The position numbers and the translations under genes are program-made. The notes beneath the pieces are model-generated. The model had not been told where the DNA came from, did not search any database, and worked only from the letters and a program-made list of their open reading frames with translations. From the NCBI GenBank assembly GCA_964410395.1, contig CAYPGS010000018.1, positions 1 to 64,000 on the forward strand: a DNA stretch of 64,000 nucleotides, read 5' to 3'. The stretch comes from an uncultured bacterium. GTDB lineage: Bacteria; Krumholzibacteriota; Krumholzibacteriia; JACNKJ01. This document shows positions 3,536-61,716 of the stretch, in pieces (the stretch's first letter is position 1; each line of letters begins with the position of its first letter).

Positions 3536-3686
3536 CTCTTGCCCTCCCATGGCGAGTTCGGAGTTGACCGACTGTCCCTAAGCATACACCCGCCCGCACC
3601 GATCGTGACGAAGATAGTTGCAGTTTCAAACCCTTGCAGGTGTCATTAGCGTGACCAAGTGCTATCGCATGCGTGGAAATAGAGAT

Positions 3687-9879: not shown

Positions 9880-10266
9880 TCAGGGAAAGGTAGGCTTTCG
9901 GTCCACCTTTCTTTTTGGCCGCAATGATTTATGCAAGCCGATGGTCTGCTTTCGAACCGAGACAAGAGCTTTTTCAACCTGGTCGACTCGGTCTTGATCC
10001 AGGAAGCAAAGCCTCTCCGCAAGCAGTACAAGGGTCTCAACTTCATTGACCGAACCCATCGCTATGTCGAGAAAGCGTCGAAACTCAGCTTCTGTATCGC
10101 GCCCGGCCCCTTCAGCGATATTCGAGGGAATTGATACTGCTGCTCTACGAATCTGATTTTGCATCCCGAATTTCTCGCTTCTTGGAAGTGCACTGCTAAC
10201 AGAGTAGACAACTTCAACGAGATCCATCGCCCTTTGCCAAACTGTATACTCTTTGTATTTCCTCAC
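9880..10266 (-). CDS. Four-helix-bundle protein (23S rRNA intervening-sequence protein / Avd family)
   Basis: 128 aa. YTVWQRAMDLVEVVYSVSSALPRSEKFGMQNQIRRAAVSIPSNIAEGAGRDTEAEFRRFLDIAMGSVNEVETLVLLAERL is the family signature. GTG start. Confidence 0.85.
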   Translation of the reverse strand: MRKYKEYTVWQRAMDLVEVVYSVSSALPRSEKFGMQNQIRRAAVSIPSNIAEGAGRDTEAEFRRFLDIAMGSVNEVETLVLLAERLCFLDQDRVDQVEKALVSVRKQTIGLHKSLRPKRKVDRKPTFP

Positions 10267-14430: not shown

Positions 14431-14817
14431 ATGCGCCCCCAACCCCTGATCGCCGTTCGCGACGTCGAAGTCAGCAGCCGCTGGTACCAGCAACTGCTCG
14501 GCTGCCGATCCGGCCACGGCGGGAGGGAGTACGAGCGCCTGTACTTCGGCGAGGAATTGATCCTTCAGTTGCACCACTGGAATGCCCACGAACATCCCCA
14601 CCTGGGCGACGAGCGGTCGAAGCCCCACGGGAACGGCGTGCTTCTCTGGTTCCAGATCGACGACTTCGATGCCGCCGTCGGCCGAATGATCGAGCTGGAT
14701 GCCGAAATTCTGCACGAGCCGCAGGTCAATCCGCGGGCCAATCATCGCGAGGTCTGGCTGCGCGATCCGGACGGCTATGTGGTGGTTCTTGCCGGCAATG
14801 CGGGTGATCTGGGATAG
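14431..14817 (+). CDS. VOC/glyoxalase-family protein
   Basis: 128 aa. IAVRDVEVSSRWYQQLLG...ILQLHHW...VLLWFQIDDFDAAV...EVWLRDPDGYVVVLAG is the typical betaalphabetabetabeta VOC pattern. Confidence 0.75.
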   Translation: MRPQPLIAVRDVEVSSRWYQQLLGCRSGHGGREYERLYFGEELILQLHHWNAHEHPHLGDERSKPHGNGVLLWFQIDDFDAAVGRMIELDAEILHEPQVNPRANHREVWLRDPDGYVVVLAGNAGDLG

Positions 14818-14890
14818 CTGCCTGGCCCGTTTGACGCGTCCGCCTTCGAGTGGTAAAATCGATGCCTATCACGAAAAGGGAGGCATCGAG

Positions 14891-17761
14891 ATGAGGCAGC
14901 TCGCAATCCTGGTATCGGTCATTCTGCTCGTCGCCGGTGGAACCGTCGCCGGCGAGATCCATCCAGCGCTGGAGGACCGGCTCGCCGAACTCGGCGAGGA
15001 CGACACCATCAAGGCCGTGGTCTTTATGGCCGAGCAGGCCCCCATCGCCGAGTTGAATCTCGAGCTGAAATCGCAGCAGGCCAAACTGCGCGACCGCCAT
15101 CGCGAGGTGGTCGAGGCGCTGAAGGATGCCGCCCGTTCCCAGTCGGACCTACTCGACTACCTCGATGAGCGCGACGGTGTGCGTGGATACACCAGCCACT
15201 GGATCGCCAACCTCATCGTCGTCGTGGCGACTCGCGCCGAGATCGAGGCCATCGCAGCCCGCGACGACGTGCTTCAGGTGGAGCCCGACTTCACACCCGA
15301 ACTCATCGCGCCAACGGGCGAGTTCCTTCCAGGCGGCGATCGCCAGATCGGCGTCACCGAGGGCCTGCGCGCCATCCGCGCGCCCGAGGTCTGGTACGAG
15401 CTAGGCTACAACGGTCTGACCACCCTGGTGGGCAGCTTCGACACGGGCGTGGACGGCAGCCATCCCGCCCTGGCCGAGCGTTGGCGCGGCAACCACGCGC
15501 CCTGGAACGAGTGCTGGCTGGATCAGGTGGACAGCGGCACCGACTATCCCTTGGACCTGGACGGCCATGGCACCCACACCTGCGGCACCATCGCTGGCGT
15601 GGCGCCGGACGATTCCATCGGCGTTGCCTGGGGCGCCGAGTGGATCGCCTGCAACGGCATCGATCAACCCGTGAGCGAGGATTTCGACAACGACGTCTTC
15701 GCCGCCCTCGAATGGTTCACCGATCCCGACGGCGACCCGGGAACCATCGACGACGTGCCCGACGTGGTGCAGAACTCCTGGGGCGTGGGCGAGCACCTGA
15801 GTTACCCGTCCTGCTACGACCTCTGGTGGACCACCATCGACAACTGCGAGGCGGCCGGCGTGGTGACGGTCTGGTCGGCCGGCAACCGCGGCCCCGACTC
15901 CCTGACCATCGGCTCTCCCGCCGATCGGGCGGCGAGTCTGACCAACTGCTTCTCGGTGGGCGCGGTGGACGCCACCAACTTCGACTGGCCCTATCCCATC
16001 ACCGACTTCTCCAGCCGCGGTCCGACGACCTGCGAGGTGGACCCGGGCCTGGAGATCAAGCCCGAGGTGGTCGCGCCCGGCGAGGACGTCTATTCCTCGC
16101 TACCCGGCGGAATCTACGGATACAACAGCGGCACCAGCATGTCCGGACCTCACGTGGCCGGCGTGGCCGCGCTCATGCGCCAGGCCGACCCCAACCTCGA
16201 CGTGGACACCATCAAGCAGATCATCATGGACACGGCCGTGGACCTGGGAGATCCGGGCGAGGAGAACACCTACGGCCACGGCCTCATCGACGCCTACGCG
16301 GCGGTGAGTGCGGTGATCGAGGGCTTCGGAACCGTGGAGGGCAGCGTGGTCAACGCGAGTTGGGGCAGCGTGCCGCTCCCCGGAGCGACGATCGAGCTCG
16401 TGGGCGACGGCTACACCTGGTTCACGGACGAGGCCGGCAATTACAGCGGGCTCGCTGCGCCCGGCGACTACACCCTGCGAGCATCGATGCCGGGCTTCGA
16501 GTCGCAGGAGATTCCCATCACCGTGATCGGCGACCTGGCCATCGAGTTCCACTTCGCGCTCACCGACATCGCCGGGCCCATCATCACCGAAGTGAGCGAA
16601 CCCATCACCCTGCCCGGCGGCGGACTCGCCGATCCCATCACCGCGGACATCCTCGACTACAGTACCGTGGCCTCCGCCACCCTGCACTTCCGACTCAACG
16701 GTGGCGACTGGAACCTGAGCTCCATGGTTCCCCGCAGCGGCATCTATGAAGGACTGCTGCCATCGGTGCCGCCCAACACGGCCATCGACTACTACGTGAG
16801 CGCTCTGGACGGCCTGGGTCAGGAGGGCCTGGCGCCCGACGGCGCTCCCGCCGAGTTCTACACCCTGCTCGCCACCGAGCAGGTCTACGCCTACGACGGC
16901 GAGGATCCGCCCGACTTCCAGTGGCGCCTGGGCATGCCCGGCGACGACGCCACCGGCGGACACTGGGTGCGCGTGGATCCCGTGGGCACCGAGCAGAGCG
17001 GCGCGCCGGTGAATCCCGAGGACGACCACACGCCCGACCCCGGCGTGAAGTGCTTCGTCACGGGCAGCGGCACGCCCGGCGAAAACGCCTTCGCCAACGA
17101 CGTGGACGACGGCTGTACCACCCTGCAGAGCCCGGTCTTCGACATCAGCGAGGCCGACGCCGCCTTCATCAGCTACTGGCGCTGGTTCGCCAACGTGCTG
17201 GTCACCGCCGACGACGAATTCGTGGCCGACATCAGCTCCGACGGCGGCGACACCTGGCTGCCGCTGGAGCGGCAGAGCGTCAACGAGAACTTCTGGAAGA
17301 AGACATTCGTGGACCTGGACGGGCTCATCCCCTTCACCGATCAGGTGGTGGTGCGCTACGTGATCTGCGACTACGGACTGCCATCGCTCCTGGACGCGGC
17401 CGTGGACGACTTCTCCGTGGAGACCTACCGGGCCACCAGCACGGGCGTGGCCGACTGGACGCCGGCCTCGGGACCGGCCCTGAGCCTGGCGGGCAGCCAT
17501 CCCAATCCCTGGCGGCCCGACGGGGGCGAATCGCTAATCGGCTTCAGCCTGAACCGCAAGGCGGAGATCAGCCTGCGCATCTACGACATCTCCGGACGCC
17601 TGGTCCGAAGCCTGGCCCGAGGTGATTTCCCCGCGGGAAGTTACGAGATCTCCTGGGACGGGCGTGACTCGCGGGGCCGCGAGGCCTCCTCGGGCATCTA
17701 CTTCTACCGCCTCCAGGGGGCCGGGCAGGAGCTGAGCAGCCGGATGGTGCTCATCCGCTGA
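14891..17761 (+). CDS. Subtilisin-like serine protease (S8) with FlgD-Ig/T9SS-type CTD
   Basis: Catalytic triad motifs FDTGVDGSHPAL (Asp), HGTHTCGTIAG (His), GTSMSGPHVAGVAAL (Ser). Signal peptide MRQLAILVSVILLVAGGTVAG after a GGGAGG SD. C-terminus is ...GIYFYRLQGAGQELSSRMVLIR. Confidence 0.85.
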   Translation: MRQLAILVSVILLVAGGTVAGEIHPALEDRLAELGEDDTIKAVVFMAEQAPIAELNLELKSQQAKLRDRHREVVEALKDAARSQSDLLDYLDERDGVRGYTSHWIANLIVVVATRAEIEAIAARDDVLQVEPDFTPELIAPTGEFLPGGDRQIGVTEGLRAIRAPEVWYELGYNGLTTLVGSFDTGVDGSHPALAERWRGNHAPWNECWLDQVDSGTDYPLDLDGHGTHTCGTIAGVAPDDSIGVAWGAEWIACNGIDQPVSEDFDNDVFAALEWFTDPDGDPGTIDDVPDVVQNSWGVGEHLSYPSCYDLWWTTIDNCEAAGVVTVWSAGNRGPDSLTIGSPADRAASLTNCFSVGAVDATNFDWPYPITDFSSRGPTTCEVDPGLEIKPEVVAPGEDVYSSLPGGIYGYNSGTSMSGPHVAGVAALMRQADPNLDVDTIKQIIMDTAVDLGDPGEENTYGHGLIDAYAAVSAVIEGFGTVEGSVVNASWGSVPLPGATIELVGDGYTWFTDEAGNYSGLAAPGDYTLRASMPGFESQEIPITVIGDLAIEFHFALTDIAGPIITEVSEPITLPGGGLADPITADILDYSTVASATLHFRLNGGDWNLSSMVPRSGIYEGLLPSVPPNTAIDYYVSALDGLGQEGLAPDGAPAEFYTLLATEQVYAYDGEDPPDFQWRLGMPGDDATGGHWVRVDPVGTEQSGAPVNPEDDHTPDPGVKCFVTGSGTPGENAFANDVDDGCTTLQSPVFDISEADAAFISYWRWFANVLVTADDEFVADISSDGGDTWLPLERQSVNENFWKKTFVDLDGLIPFTDQVVVRYVICDYGLPSLLDAAVDDFSVETYRATSTGVADWTPASGPALSLAGSHPNPWRPDGGESLIGFSLNRKAEISLRIYDISGRLVRSLARGDFPAGSYEISWDGRDSRGREASSGIYFYRLQGAGQELSSRMVLIR

Positions 17762-38956: not shown

Positions 38957-41839
38957 CTACTTGATGAGAACCATGGTCCGGCTCTTCACCTCTCCGTTCG
39001 CCGAGAGGCGATAGAGGTAGACGCCGCTGCCCACGGGGTTGCCCTTCTGATCGCGACCTTCCCAGATGACGCGGTGCTCGCCGGCGACCATCTGGTCGGC
39101 GATGAGGGTGCGCACCAGGCGGCCGTTGACGTCGAAGACCTTCAGATCCACGCGTCCGTCGGTCTCAAGAGCGAACTTGATCTCGGTGCGCGGGTTGAAG
39201 GGATTCGGATGGTTCTGCTCGAGGCGCAGGGGCACGCCGATGGTGAACTCGTCGTCCACGTTCGTGCCGCCGATGACCGCGTGGATCATGAGGTCATCCA
39301 GGGCGCCCTCGACCAAGGTCGGGATGGTGCCGTCCTTGACCTCGAACTTGAACTGAACCTGTCCGGGCTGTGCGAACAGATCGTGCAGGTAGAACTCGTT
39401 GTCCTTCCAATACGCTTCCATCGAACCGGTGTCGACATCCAGTTCGACCCAGTTGGACCCGCCGTCATTCGAGATGGACGCCGTCCAGGAATCACCCGTG
39501 CGACCGTAGTACCAGTACCAGTAGCTGATGTAAACCTCGCTGGCCTGGGTCAAGTCGTAGATGGGCGAAAGCAGCGTGACCGTACCGCCGGTGACGTCGT
39601 TGAAGTTGTCGGCCTCGCCGGGGGTGTGCTGACCGGTCACCCAACACAGGGTTCCGGGGTGGCTGATGTCGTCCTCGGGCTGTGCGGTGGTTCCGATGGG
39701 ATCCGCGCGCTCCCAGTGTCCCGTGCTGGCGGTGGCTTCGGTGCTCCAACCGGCGTCGATCTCCATGTCCTCGAGGCGCCAGGCCACGAAGAACTTGTGG
39801 AAGACGTTCGGAGCGCCCCAAGGCGAGGTTCCCGTGGTGCCCACGGTGTCCTCGGCGTAGATGTAGTAGTCCACCTGACCGGCCTGCTGCCCCGGAATCT
39901 GTCCGAAGAAGTAGGAACCGTTCATGGTATCCATATCCACGCTGTTCCAGCTGCCGCCGTTGTGGCGGTAGTAGATGGTGGCGGATTCGGGATCCAGCGG
40001 ACCCTCGGTGGACGAGATGGTCGCGCCCACGGTGTAGGGACCATCCATGTCGCCGGTGTCCGTCAGCGGAGTGTGCTCGAAGAGCACGCCCACGAGGATG
40101 GGCGGCACGTCGTAACCGTGATGCGTGGCCGCCGCGGAGAGAATGCTGTAGTGAGGCGTTCCATTGTCGAGGTCGCCGTCGTCGTCGTCGGCCATGAAGG
40201 TCCAGAAGACCTGGTCGGGCTGGTTGGTGGGATGCCCCATCAAACGCCCGTAGTGCCAGCGCTCGGCGGCCATGATGGTGCCCAACTCGTCACCGTAGTT
40301 GGACTGCATTCCCATCATGATGTCCCAGTGGAAGCCCGCGATGATCTGACCGTCGTGGTGGATCTGCCCGTTCATGTCTTCGGGGTAGATCAGGTCGTTG
40401 TCGGAGTTGCGGATTCCGTCGGTGCAGTTGCCCAGGTAGAAGCCGCGGCCGATGATGGACTCCTGCGTCATGAGGTTGGCCAGAACGTCGGAGTTACCTT
40501 CACCCAATCCCTGATCGCCCTGCCATCCGAGGATGGCGGCCTGCACGCCGTGACCGAACTCGTGATGCACCACTCCCTGGATCTCACCGGTGTTGGCGCA
40601 GCCGCCGCCTTCGGTGAAGAAGTTGATGCTGCCGTTCCAGTAGGCATTGCAGTTGTCGTTGAGGCTCACGTAAGCGTTCATCCGCTGGTTCGGCAGCGCG
40701 AACTCCGGAGCCCAGAGCTGGAAGAAGTCATGAATATCGTTGACGGCGTTGAAGACGTCGCGCTCGTCGTTCTGAGCGTTGAGGTCATCGTAAGAGATCG
40801 TCAGCGGAGTCCCTTCCCAGGCGGTTCCCGTGAATGTCGCCTCGGGGCCCCCCGAGTTCGTGATGTTGCAATAGGGACCATAGAGGTCGGCCGTGATCTG
40901 GGCCGTACCGCTGGGGCTGCTCCAATCACCATTCTCGTCGGTATAGACCGTTCCGCTGCCCGCAACCTGAACGCGCAGGTAGGGCACGGACTGATCATGG
41001 ATGCCGTTGCACCAGGTGTCCGGCTGCACTTCGGAGTTCGTGTCGCCTTCGATGAAGAAGTGCACATCGTTGTAGCGCCAGACGATCTCGCCGGTATGGG
41101 CGTCCACGTGGGTCACCCAGATACCGACCGGATCGGCCGTATGCACGCGCAGGCGCCAGACCAGGTGATACTCCACGCTCTCCTCGCTGAGGGGCACAGG
41201 GAGCACGACCAGTTCGGGCGCGGCTTCGACGCTGTCCTCGGCGGGATTGAAGCCGACATCCATGCGCGCGATCTGCTCAGCCTGATCGGCGGAGATGGCA
41301 GGCATGGCGGACAGATCGATATCGTTGTAGAGATCCGAGCCCGCAGCAATCAAGCGTCCATCTTCGGTGAAGGCGGCGAAGGCCTTGCCCTGCCAGACTT
41401 CGATTCCCTCGAAGGTCTGAGCGAGATGAGCGACCCACTTGCCCTTGTAGTTCACGCGATCGGTGATCTGCAACTCAACGCCGGCGGCACCGAGGTGCTC
41501 GGCCTGCTCGTCGAAGAGACGAAGCGTGGCGGCGTCAAGATCCACCGCGGAGCGCATGCCAGCGGTGTAGGCAGTGTTGCCGTAGACGATATGAGGCGTG
41601 CCGGCCTGGGAGTTCCAAGACCAGACATGCCAGTTGCCGCCCAGATCCTGGGCGAGTCCCTCTTCCACCGCGGCGCTAGCCTGGAGCGTCGCGAAGGATT
41701 CATAGATGTGGAGGTCGTAGGTGCCGAGAGGGATGGCGAAATCTTGCGAGTGTTCCGGTGCCTTGAACGCCTGGCTCGTGATGAGAACCAGCGCAAGACC
41801 GAGGGTGGTCAGAGCAAGGCTGAAGCGGGACTGCTTCAC
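38957..41839 (-). CDS. Thermolysin-clan (M36/M4-like) secreted zinc metalloprotease with FlgD-Ig/T9SS-type CTD
   Basis: VVHHEFGHGVQAAILG (HExxH) plus GLGEGNSDVLANL (EGxSD third-ligand motif). AGGAGG SD and GTG 41839. Signal peptide VKQSRFSLALTTLGLALVLITSQAFKA. C-terminus is NPFNPRTEIKFAL...GVYLYRLSANGEVKSRTMVLIK. Confidence 0.8.
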   Translation of the reverse strand: MKQSRFSLALTTLGLALVLITSQAFKAPEHSQDFAIPLGTYDLHIYESFATLQASAAVEEGLAQDLGGNWHVWSWNSQAGTPHIVYGNTAYTAGMRSAVDLDAATLRLFDEQAEHLGAAGVELQITDRVNYKGKWVAHLAQTFEGIEVWQGKAFAAFTEDGRLIAAGSDLYNDIDLSAMPAISADQAEQIARMDVGFNPAEDSVEAAPELVVLPVPLSEESVEYHLVWRLRVHTADPVGIWVTHVDAHTGEIVWRYNDVHFFIEGDTNSEVQPDTWCNGIHDQSVPYLRVQVAGSGTVYTDENGDWSSPSGTAQITADLYGPYCNITNSGGPEATFTGTAWEGTPLTISYDDLNAQNDERDVFNAVNDIHDFFQLWAPEFALPNQRMNAYVSLNDNCNAYWNGSINFFTEGGGCANTGEIQGVVHHEFGHGVQAAILGWQGDQGLGEGNSDVLANLMTQESIIGRGFYLGNCTDGIRNSDNDLIYPEDMNGQIHHDGQIIAGFHWDIMMGMQSNYGDELGTIMAAERWHYGRLMGHPTNQPDQVFWTFMADDDDGDLDNGTPHYSILSAAATHHGYDVPPILVGVLFEHTPLTDTGDMDGPYTVGATISSTEGPLDPESATIYYRHNGGSWNSVDMDTMNGSYFFGQIPGQQAGQVDYYIYAEDTVGTTGTSPWGAPNVFHKFFVAWRLEDMEIDAGWSTEATASTGHWERADPIGTTAQPEDDISHPGTLCWVTGQHTPGEADNFNDVTGGTVTLLSPIYDLTQASEVYISYWYWYYGRTGDSWTASISNDGGSNWVELDVDTGSMEAYWKDNEFYLHDLFAQPGQVQFKFEVKDGTIPTLVEGALDDLMIHAVIGGTNVDDEFTIGVPLRLEQNHPNPFNPRTEIKFALETDGRVDLKVFDVNGRLVRTLIADQMVAGEHRVIWEGRDQKGNPVGSGVYLYRLSANGEVKSRTMVLIK

Positions 41840-42097
41840 GGGGAGCCTCCTATATGGAAGGGGGACATGGGGATTGGATGAGGCGATAATTGTAAATTGT
41901 ACCACATATGAACGGAAATTGGGAACGGGGAAGGGGCCGTGCTGCGGTTCTATGGGGAAGATCGGGGCCCCAACCCCTCATCGAGGCTGACGCCCCGAAT
42001 TCAAGAAGGTGAAGATTTTCCAAGAAAATATAAACTTGCCAGGTCCGCAAGAGGCTAACAGCGTTACCCACCACTTCAAAAAACAGCCAGTTGTGGA

Positions 42098-42837: not shown

Positions 42838-45765
42838 TTACTTGATCAGAACCATCCTCTTGCTCTGGGTGCCCTCTTCCGTGGCGAGTCGATAAAAGTA
42901 GACGCCGCTTCCCACGGGCTCGCCCTGCTCGTCGCGACCGTCCCAGATCACGCGATGCTCGCCGGCGTCCATGTTTCCGGCGGCGAGGTTCTTCACCATG
43001 CGGCCGGCCACATCGAAGACGCTCAGGTCCACGCGTCCGCTCGCCGGCAGCGAGAAGGTGATCTCCGTTCGCGGGTTGAAGGGATTGGGCGCGTTCTGCT
43101 CCAGACGCAGAGGCACGCTCACGGCGAAGTCCTCATCGAGATCGGTGCCGAAGAGCGCGGTGATGGACACGTCGTCGATGGCGGCCTCCACCAGCGAGTT
43201 GTCGCCGGAGTCGTCCGCCACGAACTTGAACTGCACCTGTCCGTACTCGGTCACCCAGTCGTTCAGATCGAAGATCACCGAGACCCAGGCGTTGGTGCTG
43301 GCAGTCGTGGACTCCAGGGCGGTCCAGCTGGAGCCGCCGTCATTGGAGAAGTAGCTGCGCCAGGTGTCCTCGCCCGGATTGGGACCCTTGTCGTTGGAGT
43401 ACCACTTCCAGTAGCGCACGTTCACGGAGCTGGCGCCGGTGAGGTCGTAGACGGGGCTGAAGAGCGTGGTCTTGCCGCCGTCCACGTCGTTGGCGCCGTC
43501 GCTGCTGCCCATGCGTCCGTCGGTGACCCAGCAATCGGTGCCCTCGCTGGTGTGATCGTCCTCGGGCTGAGCGCTGGTGCCGTCGGGATCCATGCGGTTC
43601 CACTCGCCGTCGTCGGCGGTGTCGAAGATGTCCCCCACCGTCCAGCCACCATCCTCCTCGGCCGGATCGATGGCCCAGGCCACCAGGAAACTGAAGGGCT
43701 CGCCCGGCGCGTCATCGGGATGATAGCCCACGGTACCCAGATCGTCCTCGGCGTAGAGGTAGTAATCGACCCGGCCGCCGGAGGTGGGCGGAATCGAGGC
43801 CTCGAACTGGCCGCCGCCCAGATCGCTCATGCCCGACTCGACCCAGAGGCCGCCCTCGTAGCGATAGCGCAGTTTCACGGTGGACGGGTCGATGTTGCCC
43901 TCCACGGACCAGATGGTCGCCTCGATGGGGTAAGCATTGTCGCTGTCGGTGGTGTCGTCCAGAGGCGCGTGCACGAAGACGATGCCCGCGGGAATCGGAC
44001 ACTCGAAGCAGTGGTTCTCGGCCGCCTCGCAGTAGATGTCGCCGTGGGGCGTGCCGTTGAGGATGTCATCGTCGTCGTCGTCGGCGATGAAGGTCCAGAG
44101 CACCTGGTCGGGCTGGTACTCGGGATGTCCGAGCACGCGGCCGTAGTGCCAGTTGCTCGCCGCCACGATCGTACCCGGCGAGTCCCAGGCGCTTTCGCCG
44201 CCGTCGTAGAGTTCCTGCAGCAAGACCATGGCGTCCCAGTTGAAGCCGGCGATGATCTGGCCATCATGGTGAACGCTGCCGTTGAGGTCGGAGGGATAGC
44301 AGAGATCGTTGTCCGAGTTCCGGATGCCGCTCACGCAGTTGCCCAGGTAGAAGCCCCGGCCGATCACCGAATCCTGGGTGATCAGGTTGCCGAGAATGTC
44401 GCTGTTGCCCTCGCCCAGGCCCTCTTCGCCCTGGTATCCCAGGATGGCCGCCTGCACGCCGTGACCGAACTCGTGGTGCACCACCTGCTGCAGCTCGCCC
44501 GTATTGGCGCAGCCGCCGGCGCTGTAGCAGAAGTTGATGGTGCCGTCCCACCAGGCGTTGCAGGGACAGTAGCCGTCGTCCCGGTTGATGGTCGCGTGGA
44601 TTTGCTGGTTGGCATAGGCGAACTCCGGCGCGAAGAGCTGGAAGAAATCGTGGATGTCGTTCACCGCGTCGAAGGTGTCCAGCTCGTCCTGGCGCGCGTT
44701 GCCGGAGTCGAAGTCGACGGTGAAGGGAACATCCTCGCTCACGACGCCGCTGAAGGAAGCTTCCTGCCCCTGGAAGTTGGTCACGTAGACATAGGGACCG
44801 TGAAGGTCGGCGCTGACGCTGCGATCGCCTCCGCTTCCCGCGATGGTCCAGTTGCCGTTCTCGTCGCTGGTCACCGTGCCGAGGCCGGCCACGTCAATGT
44901 CGAGGTAGGGAATCGTGGCCACGGTGATGCCGTCGCACCAGCCGTAGATCTGGGCGTCGATCTCCGTGTCGCCGCCGTAGGCAAAGTGGATGTCGTTTCG
45001 GCGCTGAAGGATCTCGCCGCTGTGGGCGTCCACGTCGGTGACCCAGATGCCCAGGGGCTCTTCGGTGCGCACCCGCACTCGCCAGACCAGGTGATGCTCC
45101 ACCTCTTCCTCATTCAGGGCAACCGGCAGCACATGGAGCACGCTCTCCCCGTCGAGGCGATCGGTGCTCGGGTCGAAGGGCAGATCGCCTCGGGCGATGT
45201 CCTCGGCCGCCAGGCGCGAGTAGGCGGGCAGGGTCGAGAGCTCGAGATCCGAGTAGACGTCCGATCCCATGAGCAGTAGTGAGCCGCTGTCGCTGAAGAG
45301 CACCACGGCCTTGCCGCCCTTGACCTCTACGCCTTCATGGACCTGCTGGAAGTGTACGGCCCACTTGCCCCTCGCATGTTCCACGGCCGCGAGGCGCAGG
45401 TTCTCACCGTTCGTGCCGAAGACCGAGGGGTGATCCGCGATGACCCGCCAGGCCGCGGCCTCGGCATCGGCCTCTCTGGACAGACTCGCGCCCATGGCGA
45501 TGGGCGAACCATAGACGTAGTGCGGCGTGCCGGTGCGCGCATTCCAGGACCAGACCTCCCAGTCCACGTCATGGCGCGCCTTGAGCTCGGATTTCAGCGA
45601 GCTCATGGCCTGCTCGACCGCAAAGGATCGGTACCCATGAAAATCGAACTCGGGAAAACGGATTTCATACTCGTCGTTCTGATCGACGGGCATGAAGGCG
45701 AAGCTGGCGGGCGCGAAGAGGGCCAGGATGGCCGCGATGAGACGTAAGGGGACGTTCGGGCGCAT
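42838..45765 (-). CDS. Thermolysin-clan (M36/M4-like) secreted zinc metalloprotease with FlgD-Ig/T9SS-type CTD (paralogue)
   Basis: VVHHEFGHGVQAAILG plus GLGEGNSDILGNL. Start at ATG 45765, with signal peptide MRPNVPLRLIAAILALFAPASFA. The track's 46095 start is an Arg-rich extension that overlaps the next gene. C-terminus is ...GVYFYRLATEEGTQSKRMVLIK. Confidence 0.8.
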   Translation of the reverse strand: MRPNVPLRLIAAILALFAPASFAFMPVDQNDEYEIRFPEFDFHGYRSFAVEQAMSSLKSELKARHDVDWEVWSWNARTGTPHYVYGSPIAMGASLSREADAEAAAWRVIADHPSVFGTNGENLRLAAVEHARGKWAVHFQQVHEGVEVKGGKAVVLFSDSGSLLLMGSDVYSDLELSTLPAYSRLAAEDIARGDLPFDPSTDRLDGESVLHVLPVALNEEEVEHHLVWRVRVRTEEPLGIWVTDVDAHSGEILQRRNDIHFAYGGDTEIDAQIYGWCDGITVATIPYLDIDVAGLGTVTSDENGNWTIAGSGGDRSVSADLHGPYVYVTNFQGQEASFSGVVSEDVPFTVDFDSGNARQDELDTFDAVNDIHDFFQLFAPEFAYANQQIHATINRDDGYCPCNAWWDGTINFCYSAGGCANTGELQQVVHHEFGHGVQAAILGYQGEEGLGEGNSDILGNLITQDSVIGRGFYLGNCVSGIRNSDNDLCYPSDLNGSVHHDGQIIAGFNWDAMVLLQELYDGGESAWDSPGTIVAASNWHYGRVLGHPEYQPDQVLWTFIADDDDDDILNGTPHGDIYCEAAENHCFECPIPAGIVFVHAPLDDTTDSDNAYPIEATIWSVEGNIDPSTVKLRYRYEGGLWVESGMSDLGGGQFEASIPPTSGGRVDYYLYAEDDLGTVGYHPDDAPGEPFSFLVAWAIDPAEEDGGWTVGDIFDTADDGEWNRMDPDGTSAQPEDDHTSEGTDCWVTDGRMGSSDGANDVDGGKTTLFSPVYDLTGASSVNVRYWKWYSNDKGPNPGEDTWRSYFSNDGGSSWTALESTTASTNAWVSVIFDLNDWVTEYGQVQFKFVADDSGDNSLVEAAIDDVSITALFGTDLDEDFAVSVPLRLEQNAPNPFNPRTEITFSLPASGRVDLSVFDVAGRMVKNLAAGNMDAGEHRVIWDGRDEQGEPVGSGVYFYRLATEEGTQSKRMVLIK

Positions 45766-45872
45766 GAACCGGAGACCTCCGATGGAGCGGGAATGGGATT
45801 CGGTGCAGGGTTTAAGTATACCGCTTCCGGCCCCCGCGACCAAGGCCGCCGGCCATCGAGGACTCCTGGATC

Positions 45873-46502
45873 CTAAAGCCCTCGCAGGAAGGGGTTTGAG
45901 GCGGCCTCCTCCACGAGACTGCTGTCGGGACCGTGTCCGCTGTGAAGAACCGTGGAAGGCGGCAGCGCATCGATGATGCGCTCCTTGATCGAGCGCATGA
46001 GCGTGTCGTAGTCGCCGCCCGGCAGGTCGGTGCGGCCGATGGATCCGGCGAAGAGGGTGTCGCCGGCGAAAAGATGACCGTTCAGGCTGAGACACACGCC
46101 CCCGGGACTGTGACCCGGCGTGTGGATGACGCGCACCTCCAGCTCCCCCACCGCGACGGTTTCGCCATCGCGAAGGGGCTCGTCCAGGCGAGGAGGCTTC
46201 GCGGGCTCGATGCCATAGAGGCCACAGATCTGCTCGAGGTTCTCGACCAGGAAGCGGTCGTCCTCATGCATGCGGAAGGGGATCTCGAGACGGCTCTGCA
46301 GCTCCGCCGCGCCCAGCACGTGGTCCACATGGCCGTGAGTGTTCAGGATGCTCTCGATCTGGAGTCCATGCTGCTCGGCGCGGGCGATGAGGGTCTCCAC
46401 CTCGCCGCCTGGATCCACCACGAAGGCCTTCTTCGTCGCGGGATCGCCCACGAGGAAGGTGTTCTCCTGGAATGCGCCCACGGTGAGCATCTCGACGATC
46501 AT
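45873..46502 (-). CDS. MBL-fold hydrolase (hydroxyacylglutathione hydrolase-like)
   Basis: 209 aa. ILNTHGHVDHVLG (HxHxDH) and VIHTPGHSPGG. Confidence 0.8.
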   Translation of the reverse strand: MIVEMLTVGAFQENTFLVGDPATKKAFVVDPGGEVETLIARAEQHGLQIESILNTHGHVDHVLGAAELQSRLEIPFRMHEDDRFLVENLEQICGLYGIEPAKPPRLDEPLRDGETVAVGELEVRVIHTPGHSPGGVCLSLNGHLFAGDTLFAGSIGRTDLPGGDYDTLMRSIKERIIDALPPSTVLHSGHGPDSSLVEEAASNPFLRGL

Positions 46503-47495
46503 CTATCCTCCGATACGGGCCAGGGAATGCAGTTCGCCGTCGTCACCGTCTTCGAGACGGTGCTTCTCGGGCTTGTGCAGGAGCGCGGCGCGGATGCCCT
46601 CCTCCAGCGCGCGCTCCCAGGCCTCGCCCTCGAGAAGATGGCGCAGGGAGAAATTCTGCGCGCCGAAGAGGCAGCCGCGCATCTCGCCGCGATGGGTCAG
46701 GCGCACGCGATTGCAGTTGTCGCAGAAGTTCTCGCCCAGGGGGTGGATGATCCCCACGCGCAGGCCGTCGGACTCGCGCCTGAACATGCGCGCCGGTCCG
46801 TCGGGACCGCGGCGTTCGAGCTCCGTCCAGTCGCCGTTCTCGCTCATCCGCGCGAGAATGTCCTCGCCGCTCATTCGCCTCGTCTCGAAGAGTTCGCGCG
46901 CCACGCCCACGGGCATCAATTCGATGAAGCGAAGTCGCAGACCGCGATCGGCGGACAGGTCCAGGAAGTCCGTGAGCTCTTCGTCGTTGATGCCGAGCAT
47001 GGGCACCACGTTGAGCTTGATGGGATCGAGCCCCGCCGAGAGGGCGGCGTCGATGCCCTCGATGACGCGGGCAAGTTCCCCGCGGCCGGAGATCTCGCGG
47101 AAGCGCTCGGCATCGAGGGTGTCCAGGCTCACGTTCACGCGGGACAGCCCCGCGCGGGCAAGATCATCGGCCAGGGGCGCTAGGTGCATGGCGTGTGTCG
47201 AAAGGCTCACCTCGCCGATGCCATCGATCTTCGTAAGCCGGCCCACGATTTCCACGAGATCTTTTCTGAGCGTGGGTTCGCCGCCCGAGAGGCGCACCTT
47301 TTCGACACCCAGGCGTGCGAAAAGGGTCACCAGTCTCTCCCATTCCAGTGGGCTCAGTTCTTCCCGCGGGCCCTCGGGCAGCACGGGGCCGCCGGGCTGG
47401 CAGTAGAGGCAGCGGAAGTTGCAATAGGGAGTCACCGAGATCCGCAGGTAGCGGATGGACCTGCCGAAAGGATCGATGAGGGGGGCCAGGGTCAC
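46503..47495 (-). CDS. moaA: GTP 3',8-cyclase (molybdenum cofactor biosynthesis protein A)
   Basis: LRISVTPYCNFRCLYCQP radical-SAM CxxxCxxC, a C-terminal CDNCNRVRLT second cluster, and a GG C-terminus. GTG start with GAGGAG SD. Confidence 0.9.
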   Translation of the reverse strand: MTLAPLIDPFGRSIRYLRISVTPYCNFRCLYCQPGGPVLPEGPREELSPLEWERLVTLFARLGVEKVRLSGGEPTLRKDLVEIVGRLTKIDGIGEVSLSTHAMHLAPLADDLARAGLSRVNVSLDTLDAERFREISGRGELARVIEGIDAALSAGLDPIKLNVVPMLGINDEELTDFLDLSADRGLRLRFIELMPVGVARELFETRRMSGEDILARMSENGDWTELERRGPDGPARMFRRESDGLRVGIIHPLGENFCDNCNRVRLTHRGEMRGCLFGAQNFSLRHLLEGEAWERALEEGIRAALLHKPEKHRLEDGDDGELHSLARIGG

Positions 47496-53435: not shown

Positions 53436-55787
53436 TCAGGCACCCTCGTGGGCAGTACGGCGGATGATCTCGTCCTGCAGCTCCCGGCTGAGATCGCAGA
53501 AGTAGTCGCTGTAGCCGGCCACCCGCACGATGAGGTCGCCATGCTCCTCGGGCCTGGCCTGGGCGGCGCGGAGGGTGTCGGCGTCCACCACGTTGAGCTG
53601 CAGGTGATGGCCGTCCAGGCGGAAGTAGCCCCGCACGAGCATGGCCAGCTTCTCGATGCCGGCCCTCTCCTCGAGGAGCCGGGGCAGAAACTTCATGTTG
53701 AGTAGGGTGCCGCAGGTGCGGGCGTGGTCCATCTTGGCCGCCGACTTGAGTACGGCCGTCGGCCCCTGGCGGTCGGCGCCCTGAACCGGCGAGATGCCCT
53801 CGCTCACGGGAACTCCGGCGCCGCGTCCGTCGGGCGTGGCACCGAGTACGGAGCCGAAGTAGATGTGGCAGGTGGTGGGCAGCATGTCGAGGTGGTAGCG
53901 ACCGCCTCGCAGGTTCGGCCGCCCGTCCACCGCCTCGAAGAGCGCGTCGAAAACGGCGCGCATGATGTCGTCGGCCGCGTCTTCGTCGTTGCCGTAGCGA
54001 GGAGTGCGCTCGGCGAGCTCCTTGCGGCGGGCGGGCTCGCCCTCGAAATCGGAGGCGAGCAGCGAGAGCAACTCGTCCATGTCCAGCTCGCCCTCGAAGA
54101 CATGATGCTTGATGGCCGACAGGCTGTCGGTGATGGTCCCGATGCCCACGCCCTGGATGAAGCTCGTATTGTAGCGCGCGCCGCCCGCGTTGTAGTCCAG
54201 GCCCTTCTCGATGCAGTCGTCGATGAGCACCGACAGGAAGACCGCGGGCATCGCCTCGGCGTAGATGGCCTCGATGATGTCGTTGCCCCGAAGCTTGATC
54301 TCCACGAAGTGTTCGAGCTGCCGGCGGAAGGCCGAGAAGAACCCCTCGAAGGAAGTTAAGTTTCCGGGATCCCCCGTGGACAGCCCCACCCGCTCCCCCG
54401 TGCGCGGATCCATGCCATCGTGCAAGGTCACCTCGAGCACCTTGGGCGTGTTGAAGTAGCCCGTGAGGATGTAGGCCTCCTTGCCGAAGGCGCCGGTCTC
54501 CACGCATCCGCTGCTGCCGCCCTCCCGTGCATCGGCCAGGGTCTTGCCACAGCGCAGCATCTGCGTGACCACGCCGTCGGCATTGAAGATCGAGGGGTAG
54601 CCGTAGCCCTTGCGAAGTACGCGCAGGGCCGACTTGAGGAAAGCGTCGGGGCTCTTGCGGCTGAGCTGGATGTTCCCCTGGGGCTGCAGCAGATGGATGT
54701 CGTCCATCACCTCGAGGATGAGCTGGCTCAGCTCGCTCACGCCATCGGAACCGTCCGCCAGGATTCCGCCGAGGTTGATATTGGTGAAGTCGTTGTAGGT
54801 GCCGCTCTCTGCCGCCGTCACCCCGACCTTGGGCGGAGCCGGCTGGTTGTTGAACTTGATGAAGAAGCACTGAAGCAACTCGCGGGCATCCTCGCGGCTC
54901 AGGGTGCCCGCGGCGAGTTCGCGCTCGTAGAAGGGCAGCAGGTGGCGGTCGAGGTGGCCGGGATTCATGGCGTCCCAGCCGTTCAGTTCCGTGATGGTGC
55001 CCAGGTGCAGGAACCAGTACATCTGCAGGGCCTCGTGGAAATCGCGGGGAGGGTGAGCGGGCACTCGCCGACAGATTCCCGCGATGCGTAGGAGCTCTGC
55101 CTCGCGCTTCTCGTCCGGTTCGGACTCGGCCCGAGTCTCGGCCAGATCCGCGTGTCGCTCGGCGAAACGGATGGCCCCATCACAGGCCAGGTCCATGGCT
55201 CTCAGCTGCTCCCGGCGCAGATCATCCTCTTCGTCGCGTCTCAGGGAATCCAGGGCCGCGGCGATCTCGGCCTTGAAGTCGAGCAGACCCTTCTCGTAGG
55301 GCTTGCCGTCGAGGGTGGTGTGGCCCGGCGCACGCTGCTCCATGAACTCGGTGAACAGGCCCGCGGCGAAGGCCTTCTTCCAGTCCTCGGGCAGCTTCTC
55401 GAAGATGCGATCGCGCAGACTACGGCCATCCCAGAAGGGCTTCACCTCGCTCAGGTGGATGGCGATGTCCGCGTCGTTCACCGCGTAGGGAATCTTCTCC
55501 CGATCGCGGAGGATGCGAAGGTCTTCCTCGCTGTGGCAGGTGAGTTCGGGAAAGGTGGGTACGGCCCGCGGCGAAGGTCCGCGCTCTCCCACGATGAGCT
55601 CGCCCTCGCCCAGGTGGATGCTCTTGCGCTCGCAGAGATGCGCGAAGGCCCCCGCCCGCAGCATGGGAGTGGAAAGCTTCTCCTCGTTCTCACGGTAGAA
55701 TTCCGTGACCAGCAGGGCCCGCTCCATGGAGATGCTCACCGGCGTCTCGCGGCTTTCACGTCTCAGGGCTGCGACGCGTTCATTCAT
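53436..55787 (-). CDS. Glycyl radical enzyme, PFL2/1,2-eliminase clade (hydroxyproline/diol-dehydratase-like)
   Basis: 783 aa. C-terminal glycyl-radical motif LIVRVAGYSDYF, thiyl loop GGSSGCVETGAFGKE, and FTEFMEQRAPGHT and KFNNQPAPPKVG blocks. Confidence 0.85.
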   Translation of the reverse strand: MNERVAALRRESRETPVSISMERALLVTEFYRENEEKLSTPMLRAGAFAHLCERKSIHLGEGELIVGERGPSPRAVPTFPELTCHSEEDLRILRDREKIPYAVNDADIAIHLSEVKPFWDGRSLRDRIFEKLPEDWKKAFAAGLFTEFMEQRAPGHTTLDGKPYEKGLLDFKAEIAAALDSLRRDEEDDLRREQLRAMDLACDGAIRFAERHADLAETRAESEPDEKREAELLRIAGICRRVPAHPPRDFHEALQMYWFLHLGTITELNGWDAMNPGHLDRHLLPFYERELAAGTLSREDARELLQCFFIKFNNQPAPPKVGVTAAESGTYNDFTNINLGGILADGSDGVSELSQLILEVMDDIHLLQPQGNIQLSRKSPDAFLKSALRVLRKGYGYPSIFNADGVVTQMLRCGKTLADAREGGSSGCVETGAFGKEAYILTGYFNTPKVLEVTLHDGMDPRTGERVGLSTGDPGNLTSFEGFFSAFRRQLEHFVEIKLRGNDIIEAIYAEAMPAVFLSVLIDDCIEKGLDYNAGGARYNTSFIQGVGIGTITDSLSAIKHHVFEGELDMDELLSLLASDFEGEPARRKELAERTPRYGNDEDAADDIMRAVFDALFEAVDGRPNLRGGRYHLDMLPTTCHIYFGSVLGATPDGRGAGVPVSEGISPVQGADRQGPTAVLKSAAKMDHARTCGTLLNMKFLPRLLEERAGIEKLAMLVRGYFRLDGHHLQLNVVDADTLRAAQARPEEHGDLIVRVAGYSDYFCDLSRELQDEIIRRTAHEGA

Positions 55788-56697
55788 CCTTCTCGCCTCC
55801 GATGGTCACGGGCAGGCCCGCTTCCCGCAGAATCGTTGCCAGGGTTTCCAGACGTTCCGGCGAGGCCTTCATGTCCCCTGGCAGATTCCAGTCCATGCCG
55901 AATCGCGCATGCTTGTCGCGGGATCCGGCGTGGAAGGGCAGCAGGGTCACGCCGCTCAAGTTTAGCATGCCCGAAAGCCGCGCGGCAGTAGCCCGCATGT
56001 TTTCCGCGTCGTCGTTGACGCCGGGAATCACCGGCACACGCACCTCCAGGGAGCGTCCCATGCTCTCGAGCGTGTCGAGGTTCGATAGGAGCTGCCGGTT
56101 GCTCGACCCGGTGAAGCGCCGATGTCGTTGCTCGTCCATGAGCTTCAGGTCGAAAAGGATGAGCTCGGCCCGCTCGGCCACGGCCGCGAAGAGCTCGGGC
56201 TCGGCGTGGCCCGTGGTGTCCACGGCCCGATGCAGGTCGGCCTGGCCGCAGAGCTCCAGGGCTTCGATCAGGAACTCGGGCTGGGCCAGGGGCTCGCCAC
56301 CGGAGAAGGTCACGCCGCCGCCGGACTCCTCGTAGAAGACTCGATCCCGCTCGAGTTCCGCGAGCAATTCGGCCGTGTCCACCGAACGTCCCAACATCTC
56401 ACGAGCGTTTGTGGGACAGGCCGCAACGCATTCCCCCCGCAGACGACAGCCCGACTCGTCGGTAAGACTCTTGCCCGCCGCCAGCCTGATCGCCTCTTCG
56501 GGACATGCCTCGACGCATTTACCGCAGCCCAGGCAGAGTTCGGCGCGGAAGAGCAGCATGGCCTCGGCGGCCCGGCTCTCGGGATTGTGGCACCAGGGAC
56601 AGAGAAAGGGACAGCCCTTGAGGAAGACCGTGCTGCGGATTCCCGGACCGTCATGCACCGAGAACCGCTTCAGGTCGAAGATCAGGCCTCGGACCAT
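55780..56697 (-). CDS. Glycyl-radical-enzyme activating enzyme (radical SAM with ferredoxin-like insert)
   Basis: FSVHDGPGIRSTVFLKGCPFLCPWCHNPE (CxxxCxxC) plus CLGCGKCVEACP and CRLRGECVAACP auxiliary clusters. Overlaps the GRE start by 8 nt. Confidence 0.9.
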   Translation of the reverse strand: MVRGLIFDLKRFSVHDGPGIRSTVFLKGCPFLCPWCHNPESRAAEAMLLFRAELCLGCGKCVEACPEEAIRLAAGKSLTDESGCRLRGECVAACPTNAREMLGRSVDTAELLAELERDRVFYEESGGGVTFSGGEPLAQPEFLIEALELCGQADLHRAVDTTGHAEPELFAAVAERAELILFDLKLMDEQRHRRFTGSSNRQLLSNLDTLESMGRSLEVRVPVIPGVNDDAENMRATAARLSGMLNLSGVTLLPFHAGSRDKHARFGMDWNLPGDMKASPERLETLATILREAGLPVTIGGEKDE

Positions 56698-60393: not shown

Positions 60394-60423
60394 AAAAAAC
60401 CCCCGCCACATGGCGGGGGTTTC
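60394..60423 (-). terminator. Rho-independent terminator (bidirectional hairpin)
   Basis: AAAAAA-CCCCCGCC-acat-GGCGGGGG-TTT. On the minus strand it follows the peroxiredoxin stop. Confidence 0.8.
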
Positions 60424-60443: not shown

Positions 60444-60914
60444 CTAGCCGACCAATTCCTTGGTCTTCGCGAGCAGTTCCATCGGCTGACGCGCGCCGTC
60501 GGGACCGACGGACTTGGACCAGAGGACCTTGCCATTCTTGTCGATCAGAATGGTGGCGCGGTCGGAGATGCCCGCTTCATCCAGCCACAGGCCGTAGGCC
60601 TTGGACACTTCGCCCTTGGGATGGAAGTCGGCCATCAGGGGAAACTTGATGCCGTCAAAGGTGCTCGCCCAGCCCTTGTGTGTGAACTTCGAATCCACGC
60701 TCATACCCAGAACCTGGGTATCGATGGCCTCGAACTCTTCGAGAAGAGCGTTGAGGCCAGGGATCTCGATGCTTCAAGTGGGCGTGAAGTCGAGGGGATA
60801 GGAAACGAAAAGCACATTCTTGGAGCCCTTGAAATCCGAGAGCTTGACGATCTCGTCCAAGTGGCTGTCCAGGCTGAAATCCGGAGCGTTCGCGCCGGCT
60901 TCGATCAGGGCCAT
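60444..60914 (-). CDS. AhpE/BCP-like 1-Cys peroxiredoxin with in-frame TGA (60774..60776) at the peroxidatic position: candidate selenoprotein
   Basis: Track ORFs 60774..61094 and 60444..60704 are in the same frame and are separated by one TGA. The joined product has YPLDFTPT-[TGA]-SIE, which matches PxxxTxxC, and the conserved Arg (DRATILID). GGAGG SD lies 7 nt before ATG 60914. Confidence 0.7.
60726..60758 (-). other. Candidate bacterial SECIS stem-loop
   Basis: The mRNA 15 nt 3' of the UGA reads GGCCUC-AACG-CUCUU-CUCG-AAGAG-UUC-GAGGCC. That is a 6-bp lower stem, an internal loop and a 5-bp upper stem. An alternative fold is CUCGAA-GAG-UUCGAG. Confidence 0.4.
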
Positions 60915-61080
60915 GGATTGCCTCCGTTTGAGGTGAAAGTGAATCGCTTGCTTGGCGACAATATCCCACAAGGCTTCGGCTTTCTCAACAGGCAGAGTGC
61001 ACTCAGGATTCCGCGATCCTGAACTCCGCATCTGAAGGGCCTTCGACGACGAATCGTGGCAGTGGGCCGGCGGCGGGCAT

Positions 61081-61116
61081 GAAAAATCCCCCACCTGCTG
61101 GCGGGGGGTTTTTTTA
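61081..61116 (-). terminator. Rho-independent terminator after the thioredoxin gene
   Basis: AAAAA-TCCCCCACC-tgct-GGCGGGGGG-TTTTTTT, flanked by runs on both sides. Confidence 0.7.
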
Positions 61117-61131: not shown

Positions 61132-61500
61132 TTACAGGTGTTTTTCGAGCCGAGAGATCAAGCTGTATCGTGGTGGAACGCCGGCGATGGTGTCCACGGG
61201 GCGGCCTTTCTCGAAAACGAGCAGGGTCGGCAGGCTCTTAACCTCATAGCGAATGGCCAGGTCGCGGTCCTGGTCCACGTTGACCTTCGCGAAGCGGAGC
61301 TTACCGCCCATCAGCTCATTCATCTCCTCGAGCATGGGCTCCATGGACTTGCACGGCTGGCACCAATCTGCCCAAAAGTCAACAATGACAGGGGTTTCCG
61401 AGTCCGAGATGACTTCATCGAAGTTCTGGGCGTTCAGGGGCTGGAGCTTGTCCAAGTAAGGGTCCTCCTCAAGGGTACTCTGCGCGGCGAATGTCACCAT
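61132..61500 (-). CDS. Thioredoxin
   Basis: VIVDFWADWCQPCKSMEP (WCxPC) and ...VKSLPTLLVFEKG. Start ATG 61500 (GAGGG SD) or ATG 61521. Confidence 0.85.
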   Translation of the reverse strand: MVTFAAQSTLEEDPYLDKLQPLNAQNFDEVISDSETPVIVDFWADWCQPCKSMEPMLEEMNELMGGKLRFAKVNVDQDRDLAIRYEVKSLPTLLVFEKGRPVDTIAGVPPRYSLISRLEKHL

Positions 61501-61716
61501 AGCCCGGACCCTCAGGTCCATCACAAGGACTTTTTTGAAGAAAATTTGGGGCCTCCAGAATTAAGGTAAACGCGGAATGAAGTCGCCCAGTTTTCAAGAC
61601 TTGCGGGACCTATATCAATAAAGAGCAGGTTAGACAGATAACGGGTTGTCCACATAATCTAATAAAGATGCTCACTCGGCTCTTCGTTTCCGGCAAATCC
61701 TTTCTTCCCAACTTCT

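Follow-up and report, generated by a model that had tools for sequence, protein, structure and literature searches.

When a conserved enzyme is cut in two by a single UGA codon, does that codon mark a broken gene, or does it encode an amino acid? The question is raised by positions 60914..60444, on the minus strand, of a 64,000-nucleotide (nt) stretch of DNA from an uncultured bacterium of the Krumholzibacteriota (contig CAYPGS010000018.1), which we analyzed at its full length and refer to as the window. With a probability of roughly 0.88, we conclude that this interval is one functional gene for an AhpE-like peroxiredoxin of the 1-Cys type, and that its peroxidatic residue is selenocysteine (Sec), encoded by the UGA at 60776..60774.

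The peroxiredoxin gene and its in-frame UGA codon

Translation of 60914..60444 gives a single frame of 156 codons in which the sole internal stop is TGA 60776..60774. The list of open reading frames (ORFs) for the window splits the gene at this codon into two minus-strand pieces, 60774..61094 and 60444..60704; an earlier note on this DNA had described them as same-frame pieces separated by one TGA, and the list and the translation agree with that description exactly. For a Pfam search of the joined protein, Cys was put in place of the TGA. The joined protein matches AhpC-TSA (PF00578) over residues 7-132 with a score of 112.6 bits against a cut-off of 26 (E = 1.5e-32), and it also matches Redoxin. 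The nearest solved structures are those of Mycobacterium tuberculosis AhpE (3e-30), and the top seven matches in the Protein Data Bank (PDB) are all AhpE-type chains. These matches bear out the AhpE-like, 156-residue product that had been predicted for the read-through frame, and the match to solved AhpE structures suggests that the protein adopts a thioredoxin fold.

The active-site motif reads P40-L-D-F-T44-P-T-[TGA]47. In the alignment with AhpE, which had been proposed as a check, the TGA column is the column of the peroxidatic Cys, and the Arg that had been noted downstream, Arg119, aligns with the catalytic Arg of AhpE. P40, T44, [UGA]47, and R119 thus reproduce the AhpE active site, that is, the PxxxTxxC motif together with its Arg, and all four are invariant in alignment A1. 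The window protein contains no Cys whatsoever, and residue 47 is its sole redox residue. Having no resolving Cys, and being closest to AhpE by its PDB matches, the predicted protein fits the AhpE-type 1-Cys class. The gene also has the Shine-Dalgarno sequence, the terminator, and the upstream thioredoxin gene on the same strand that had been claimed for it (Table 1); the terminator at 60419..60394, which was read from the sequence, is missing from the output of a terminator consensus scan.

We compared the UGA codon among related loci drawn from a species-representative genome collection and, for 80 of them, from a metagenome scan. TGA occupies the peroxidatic column in 93 of the 94 loci that have the YPLDFTPT-x-S motif (83 unique sequences, 49-94% identity, several phyla). 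In the species-representative collection, all 11 of the closest loci (69-94% identical) have TGA in that column, and their record titles name Krumholzibacteriia, Eisenbacteria, Planctomycetota, and "uncultured bacterium". Even a locus that is only ~42% identical, L013 from a metagenome-assembled genome (MAG) of Pyrinomonadaceae (Acidobacteriota), has TGA at its peroxidatic codon (3130..3132; FTGG-U-TKEL). The lone exception among the 94 is L081, in a Planctomycetota MAG (JAWKUH010000009.1), where the peroxidatic codon at 10133..10135 is GGA (Gly). Its product, P0001, is annotated as full-length by NCBI, and the downstream hairpin H2 described below is fully intact in this locus. P0001 was considered as a Cys form and rejected, since the codon is truly GGA; possible sources of this Gly codon are a recent inactivating mutation, variation within the population, and an artefact of assembly. 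Farther homologues (P0072, P0079, P0100, P0150-P0152, and P0214) have Cys at this position, and their DNA reads TGC in all five that were examined. The window gene therefore forms a Sec/Cys pair with its homologues, an in-frame UGA standing opposite their Cys.

The ratio of nonsynonymous to synonymous substitution rates (dN/dS) is ~0.34 before the UGA and ~0.26 after it, indicating that both halves of the gene are under purifying selection. Together with the conservation across phyla, this upholds the view that the gene is not a decayed pseudogene. The exact gene of the window, including the TGA, is present in at least 10 contigs, two separate and unrelated sequencing runs among them. Elsewhere in the window, TGA is the terminator of 12 other genes, ~49 other genes have no internal TGA, and no other in-frame TGA in the 64 kb has a coding signature on both sides. 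Given the TGA in 93 of 94 loci, the Cys in farther homologues, and the selection on both halves, UGA 60776..60774 almost certainly encodes Sec, as had been proposed; the identity of the inserted residue is judged from this comparative evidence and from the established behavior of the Sec-peroxiredoxin family.

The Ser codon that immediately follows the UGA (60771..60773) is AGC in 72 of 76 sequences, while other Ser sites mix AGC, TCC, and TCG. A U after UGA makes a strong termination context, and avoidance of U in that place is one possibility for this bias.

Peroxiredoxins with Sec in a TxxU or PxxxTxxU motif are an established bacterial selenoprotein family (PMC13188914). The Sargasso Sea data yielded 43 such genes (PMC1088965), and a 2016 survey counted 91 across 78 organisms (PMC5029168). 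The window gene adds a member to this established and common family. It also has what the field looks for, a conserved UGA paired with Cys in homologues and followed by a stem-loop. When 5.8 billion predicted proteins were searched, the matches listed were mostly C-terminal fragments of 85-108 residues, 54-69% of the query, a trace of the same TGA having been called as a stop in many genomes. Among the matches listed, well over 100 protein clusters are post-UGA fragments of the Sec-peroxiredoxin family. Such abundance, like the two surveys, runs counter to the earlier note's remark that these proteins are rare; its remark that they are usually annotated in pieces holds, since public records cut the relatives in the same way and NCBI annotates them as a truncated "redoxin domain-containing protein".

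Three full-length predictions from contigs of 1.0-2.3 kb (P0062, P0126, and P0195) have Trp at the Sec column and were rejected as Cys forms on that ground. They are probably code-4 gene calls on short TGA-bearing contigs, because P0126 clusters at >=90% identity with post-UGA fragments. In a sister clade (L137-L161; P0134-P0251), the peroxiredoxin carries a C-terminal glutaredoxin-like domain (PF00462), and the peroxidatic codon is likewise TGA. More than 100 clusters of ~201 residues, labeled 'hypothetical protein' or 'glutaredoxin', appear to be the post-UGA fragments of this clade, and its full-length Cys forms, of ~250 residues, are rare. Public records thus hold the gene and over 100 related clusters only as fragments of 85-108 or ~201 residues, or with a spurious Trp, so that they largely conceal an antioxidant selenoenzyme that is abundant in uncultured marine and sediment lineages.

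Two hairpins downstream of the UGA codon

In the bacterial model of the selenocysteine insertion sequence (SECIS), called bSECIS, the hairpin has a loop of 3-9 nt, a stem of 4-16 base pairs (bp), a G in the first two loop positions, a spacing of 16-37 nt between UGA and loop, and a minimum free energy (MFE) of at most -7.5 kcal/mol; the loop usually reads N1-G-[G|U]-N-N2, with N1 and N2 paired (PMC13188914). In BSepDB, 12.6% of the accepted bacterial selenoprotein genes have no canonical SECIS. We re-implemented the published bSECIS rules. Under these rules, a qualifying hairpin is found at 42 of 76 true UGAs (55%) and at 42% of random in-frame codons. Since the rules do not discriminate, being "compatible with a SECIS" is weak evidence in a gene as rich in G+C as this one.

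The hairpin that the earlier note had proposed as a SECIS, here called H1, does exist and is stable. It is part of the MFE fold, with z = -2.8 for a 91-nt stretch and z = -4.3 for +10..+51 (numbered from the UGA). Its apical loop, CUCG, lies 30 nt from the UGA and lacks the required G in its first two positions. We tested each helix in an ungapped alignment of 82 distinct sequences by comparing pairing in register with pairing after the partner strand had been slid. The pairs of H1 form in 57% of alignment cells, compared with 37-57% when the partner is slid, so H1 was rejected as a conserved helix of fixed register. What is kept in nearly every sequence is a long, bulged hairpin at +13..+50, of varying register, which makes a tandem-hairpin fold with H2. 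Across the family, this region has a mean z of -3.0, with 85% of the sequences below -2, and no other 51-nt stretch of the gene is as stable (~-20 kcal/mol here versus -13 to -16 at equal G+C). Synonymous variation at its codons is ordinary. H1 is a real thermodynamic feature of the family and is free in sequence; its unconserved register and its loop speak against it as the SECIS that had been suggested.

Upstream of the UGA, the 51-nt stretches that begin 33-51 nt before it (~60809..60825 in the window) are unusually unstructured throughout the family, with a mean MFE of -6 to -8 kcal/mol as against -11 to -16 elsewhere.

The element that is conserved, covarying, and associated with Sec is a second hairpin, H2, which the earlier note had missed. 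It consists of AUACCCAG-GUU-CUGGGUAU and overlaps codons D-T-Q-V-L-G-M; its loop, G-GUU-C, lies 60 nt from the UGA, and the hairpin has a free energy of -10.7 kcal/mol. The G-GUN-C apical motif fits the consensus SECIS loop pattern exactly. In the same 82 sequences, H2 pairs form in 90% of alignment cells, compared with 17-51% when slid, and H2 is the sole consensus helix found by RNAalifold. Pair 63-79 of the alignment is U-A in 41 sequences, C-G in 30, and G-C in 8; pair 69-73 is G-C in 66, G-U in 10, and A-U in 4; and at pair 66-76 a switch to U-A coincides with a change from Gly to Ser. A neighbor-joining tree made without the H2 region requires at least 16 changes in one column of pair 63-79 and at least 17 in the other, but only 18 changes in the state of the pair. 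There have therefore been ~15 independent, compensatory double substitutions, which tie the synonymous third base of an Asp, Asn, His, or Glu codon to the Met/Ile, Val, or Leu found six codons on. Synonymous variation also collapses at H2 codons (ACC in 71 of 76, CAG in 70 of 75, and GGT in 65 of 73), where the share of GGT at the gene's other Gly sites is never above 38%.

H2 follows the presence of Sec. All 8 of its pairs are intact in 72 of the 82 Sec forms, and the loop starts with GU in 80 of them. None of the five Cys-form genes has an intact H2, the counts being 7, 7, 5, 2, and 3 of 8 pairs. One Cys form, L166, retains the TQVLG residues and has its helix broken by the synonymous codons CTC GGC; three others have lost those residues (TQVMAC, TLVCAI, and TLPVAV). 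In the Sec forms L140, L149, and L152, H2 and part of TQVLG are lost, and a compact hairpin with a GGA or UGGAU loop is found instead. Four Sec sequences in all lack H2 and five carry the compact hairpin at a spacing of 19-20, and these three loci belong to both groups; the association of H2 loss with the compact hairpin gives a Fisher p of 4e-4, uncorrected for relatedness. L151 and L157 carry both elements. Within the family, the SECIS appears to have shifted its position in L140, L149, and L152. In L013, inspection by eye finds a hairpin, UAUC-AGGCU-GAUA, ~22 nt beyond the UGA; at the place of H2 in the family there is a sequence that resembles a weakened H2. Loss of H2 is thus seen where Sec is absent or where a canonical SECIS exists, as is expected if H2 is part of the Sec-decoding signal. 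The coding sequence bears the mark of this constraint, in that Sec forms keep the TQVLG residues and the rare GGT codon, whereas both drift in Cys forms. With 82 distinct sequences, the family is a clean natural data set, and its sole conserved Sec-associated RNA element lies 60 nt from the UGA.

Hairpins of at least 6 bp with a G-GUN-C loop were also sought across all loci, giving 20 matches outside peroxiredoxin genes. Five of those with a TGA 10-70 nt upstream were translated, and in none of the five is the frame of that TGA a plausible coding frame.

Proposed decoding and alternative explanations

In the mechanism that we propose, UGA 60776..60774 would be decoded by SelB carrying Sec-tRNA(Sec), guided by an RNA structure downstream within the coding sequence. 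This structure would consist of two adjacent hairpins, the variable, bulged H1 (+13..+50) and the short, conserved H2 (+53..+71). Folding of H1 would join its two ends and bring H2 back toward the mRNA entrance of the ribosome; once H1 has folded, the remaining path along the RNA between the UGA and the H2 loop has a median of 24 nt (range 11-28), inside or close to the canonical range. That H2 is the SelB-binding hairpin and H1 a structured spacer is a proposal to which we would give roughly even odds. In the protein, the selenolate of Sec47 would reduce the peroxide with the help of Thr44 and Arg119 and become a selenenic acid. An external reductant would be needed because the protein has no second Cys, and recycling would most likely fall to the thioredoxin encoded upstream; in the sister clade, the fused glutaredoxin domain probably takes this role. 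A partner of thioredoxin fold is indicated because a thioredoxin gene adjoins and the sister clade has a glutaredoxin fusion.

Several observations weigh against this reading. No single hairpin in the window gene satisfies all of the published bSECIS rules as re-implemented here, H1 breaking the loop-G rule and H2 the spacing rule. We know of no bacterial SelB that acts from 60 nt. The SECIS hairpin of E. coli, a 17-nt upper hairpin with U17, G23, and U24 as its key bases, must lie 11 nt from the UGA (PMC8659212). Rfam (release 15) gives no SECIS match in the whole window at the gathering threshold, and at E<=10 the interval 60640..60800 gives only a chance miRNA match; the covariance-model check that had been suggested, as run with Rfam, thus finds no SECIS family there. 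Part of H2 is not independent evidence, because the GU of its loop is fixed by a conserved Val codon and because its 5-bp core (CCCAG/CUGGG) comes free with the common codons for T-Q-x-L-G; moreover, two Cys forms keep 7 of the 8 pairs. Finally, the Sec machinery genes selA, selB, selD, and tRNA-Sec are absent from the window and from 779 kb of fetched loci: ARAGORN finds no tRNA-Sec in the window and 162 fetched sequences, and Pfam finds no SelA, SelB, or SelD domain in 40 window ORFs. Their absence is expected, since the sample is so small. A scan of the window and the loci for further selenoprotein genes, by in-frame TGA with a coding signature on both sides, found none, nor did a second scan with relaxed lengths plus redox motifs.

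Whether the UGA is decoded as Sec at all can be asked in two ways. Downstream hairpins are able to stimulate stop-codon read-through generally, and no gene of the Sec machinery turned up in the window or the fetched loci; the structures after the UGA might promote near-cognate insertion of Trp or Cys. We regard this as very improbable: the UGA stands exactly at the residue where exchange between Sec and Cys is the rule in the documented TxxU family (PMC13188914), the enzyme would be dead with Trp as its peroxidatic residue, TGA persists in 93 of 94 loci although a single mutation would turn it into a Cys codon, and H2 presents the consensus SECIS loop pattern. The TGA might otherwise have arisen by nonsense mutation or by an error in sequencing, or it might reflect an alternative code in which TGA means Trp or Gly, as the W of P0062, P0126, and P0195 and the GGA of L081 could be taken to suggest. 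Error, pseudogene, and altered code are practically excluded, however, because the TGA is conserved across phyla, both halves are under selection, the same sequence recurs in independent assemblies, and TGA behaves as an ordinary stop at the ends of 12 other window genes and inside none of the ~49 others; the W calls, for their part, are confined to short contigs of 1-2.3 kb.

If Sec is accepted, the roles of the hairpins could still be assigned the other way round, with H1 as the actual SECIS in canonical position under relaxed loop rules, and H2 as an auxiliary that, for example, stacks on the base of H1 against the ribosome or prevents mispairing. H1 begins 13-16 nt after the UGA, at the site of the minimal SECIS of E. 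coli (PMC8659212); it is the most stable stretch of the gene throughout the family; and L013, L140, L149, and L152 manage with only a hairpin at the H1 position. On the other hand, the register of H1 is unconserved, its codons vary synonymously as usual, and its apical loop varies freely (CUCG, GCU, UGCUC, UGGA, and others). Of the 76 true UGAs, only 42 are followed by a hairpin that satisfies the rules, and 42% of random codons have one too. Orthologues should share a motif that SelB contacts, and H2 alone shows such conservation. We therefore consider this assignment possible but rather doubtful.

Should the two-hairpin model with H2 as the SelB site be true, it would describe a bacterial SECIS architecture beyond the 16-37 nt consensus and account for some of the ~13% of bacterial selenoprotein genes without a canonical SECIS. 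The distance rule derived from E. coli would not be general, and SECIS tools that end at 37 nt would overlook the signal or assign it wrongly. Under this model, too, five residues of a protein strand (T-Q-V-L-G) would be dictated by an RNA element.

Genomic surroundings and comparison with known systems

Table 1. Positions of the peroxiredoxin gene, its signals and hairpins, and the adjoining genes in the window
Feature	Position	Strand	Basis and remarks
Peroxiredoxin coding sequence, 156 residues, AhpE-like	60444..60914	minus	ATG 60914, TAG 60446..60444, one in-frame UGA
UGA codon 47, proposed Sec at peroxidatic position of PxxxTxxU	60774..60776	minus	Aligns with AhpE peroxidatic Cys
Codons P40 to T44 (P-L-D-F-T)	60783..60797	minus	Sequence reading; most columns invariant in alignment A1
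Catalytic Arg119, CGC	60558..60560	minus	Aligns with Arg of AhpE 'NRGT'; invariant in A1
H1, GGCCUC-AACG-CUCUU-CUCG-AAGAG-UUC-GAGGCC	60726..60758	minus	+16..+48 after UGA; hairpin of the earlier note
H2, AUACCCAG-GUU-CUGGGUAU, 8-bp stem, G-GUN-C apical motif	60703..60721	minus	+53..+71 after UGA
Shine-Dalgarno sequence GGAGG	60921..60925	minus	Sequence reading; 6 nt ahead of ATG
Promoter-like site TTGAGA, 17-nt spacer, GATATT with TG before	60960..60988	minus	Consensus match only
Intrinsic terminator CCCCCGCC-AUGU-GGCGGGGG + UUUUUU	60394..60419	minus	Sequence reading; G+C-rich
Thioredoxin gene, active site WCQPC	61132..61524	minus	Pfam Thioredoxin 6.9e-28; own terminator 61107..61088 (scan)
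DUF7901 protein, 281 aa	59529..60374	plus	Converges on peroxiredoxin terminator; neighbor kept in L001 and L082

The usual active site of thioredoxin is WCGPC, in contrast to the WCQPC of the upstream gene. Because a terminator lies between the thioredoxin and peroxiredoxin genes, as does the promoter-like site at 60988..60960, the two are probably separate transcription units. Their adjacency is kept only in the six closest relatives, which are >=85% identical.

Elsewhere in the window, five proteins of 436-1567 residues end in an FlgD_ig domain (2240..3550, 3761..8464, 14699..17761, 38957..41905, and 42838..46095), which we suspect to be a C-terminal secretion or sorting tag. The set includes a WD40-repeat protein, a C25 peptidase (1567 aa), and an S8 subtilase (1020 aa), and for two of its members (982 and 1085 aa) FlgD_ig is the sole Pfam match. 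A glycyl-radical enzyme (PFL-like, 783 aa) adjoins its radical-SAM activase at 53436..56697 on the minus strand, and a MoaA-like gene lies at 46503..47495; together, these three genes suggest an anaerobic lifestyle. The 50 called genes of the window end in TAG (30), TGA (13), and TAA (7), a usage that is unusual at ~63% G+C.

With the bacterial Sec-peroxiredoxin family (PMC13188914, PMC1088965), the window gene shares the PF00578 domain, Sec in PxxxTxxU, Cys in the same column of homologues, a recoding signal within the coding sequence downstream of the UGA, and routine truncation in annotation. It departs from the consensus of that family in that its clade is AhpE-like and has the loop of its conserved hairpin 60 nt from the UGA rather than 16-37 nt, and NCBIfam has no dedicated model for an AhpE-like Sec clade. 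The best NCBIfam match of the window protein, at 5e-24, is PrxU of Eubacterium acidaminophilum (NF040737), to which the earlier note had pointed and which resembles it as a thioredoxin-dependent enzyme with a peroxidatic Sec. The window protein does not qualify as a PrxU equivalog, however, scoring 85.3 bits against a cut-off of 270, and the PrxU model has 233 positions where the window protein has 156 residues. The thiol peroxidase Prx-SUH (NF045827), which has a CxxU motif, was rejected as a match (28.1 bits against 298), the motif of the window protein being TxxU.

M. tuberculosis AhpE (Rv2238c; PDB 1XVW, 1XXU, 4X0X, and 5ID2) aligns with the window protein over residues 1-142 and is of the same size. 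Both are of the 1-Cys type with no resolving Cys, and they have the same Pro, Thr, and Arg in the active site. AhpE differs in having Cys rather than Sec and SAALAIS in place of TQVLG, and nothing suggests an RNA element in its gene.

Compared with the SelB-bound SECIS hairpins of E. coli fdhF and Moorella thermoacetica fdhA, H2 is likewise short and has a loop that begins G-U beside the closing pair. Its loop follows the consensus N1-G-[G|U]-N-N2, in which G23 and U24 of E. coli are conserved and G23 is a SelB contact. Unlike those two hairpins, H2 has no bulged U; and the 17-nt hairpin of E. coli starts 11 nt after the UGA, whereas H2 starts 53 nt after it, with H1 between.

Haemophilus influenzae has a peroxiredoxin-glutaredoxin hybrid protein. 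The sister clade (L137-L161, P0072, and P0079), with its C-terminal PF00462 domain, is like such hybrids, and its fusion points to a thioredoxin-fold reductant for the family. In contrast, the window protein has no fused domain, and a separate thioredoxin gene lies upstream.

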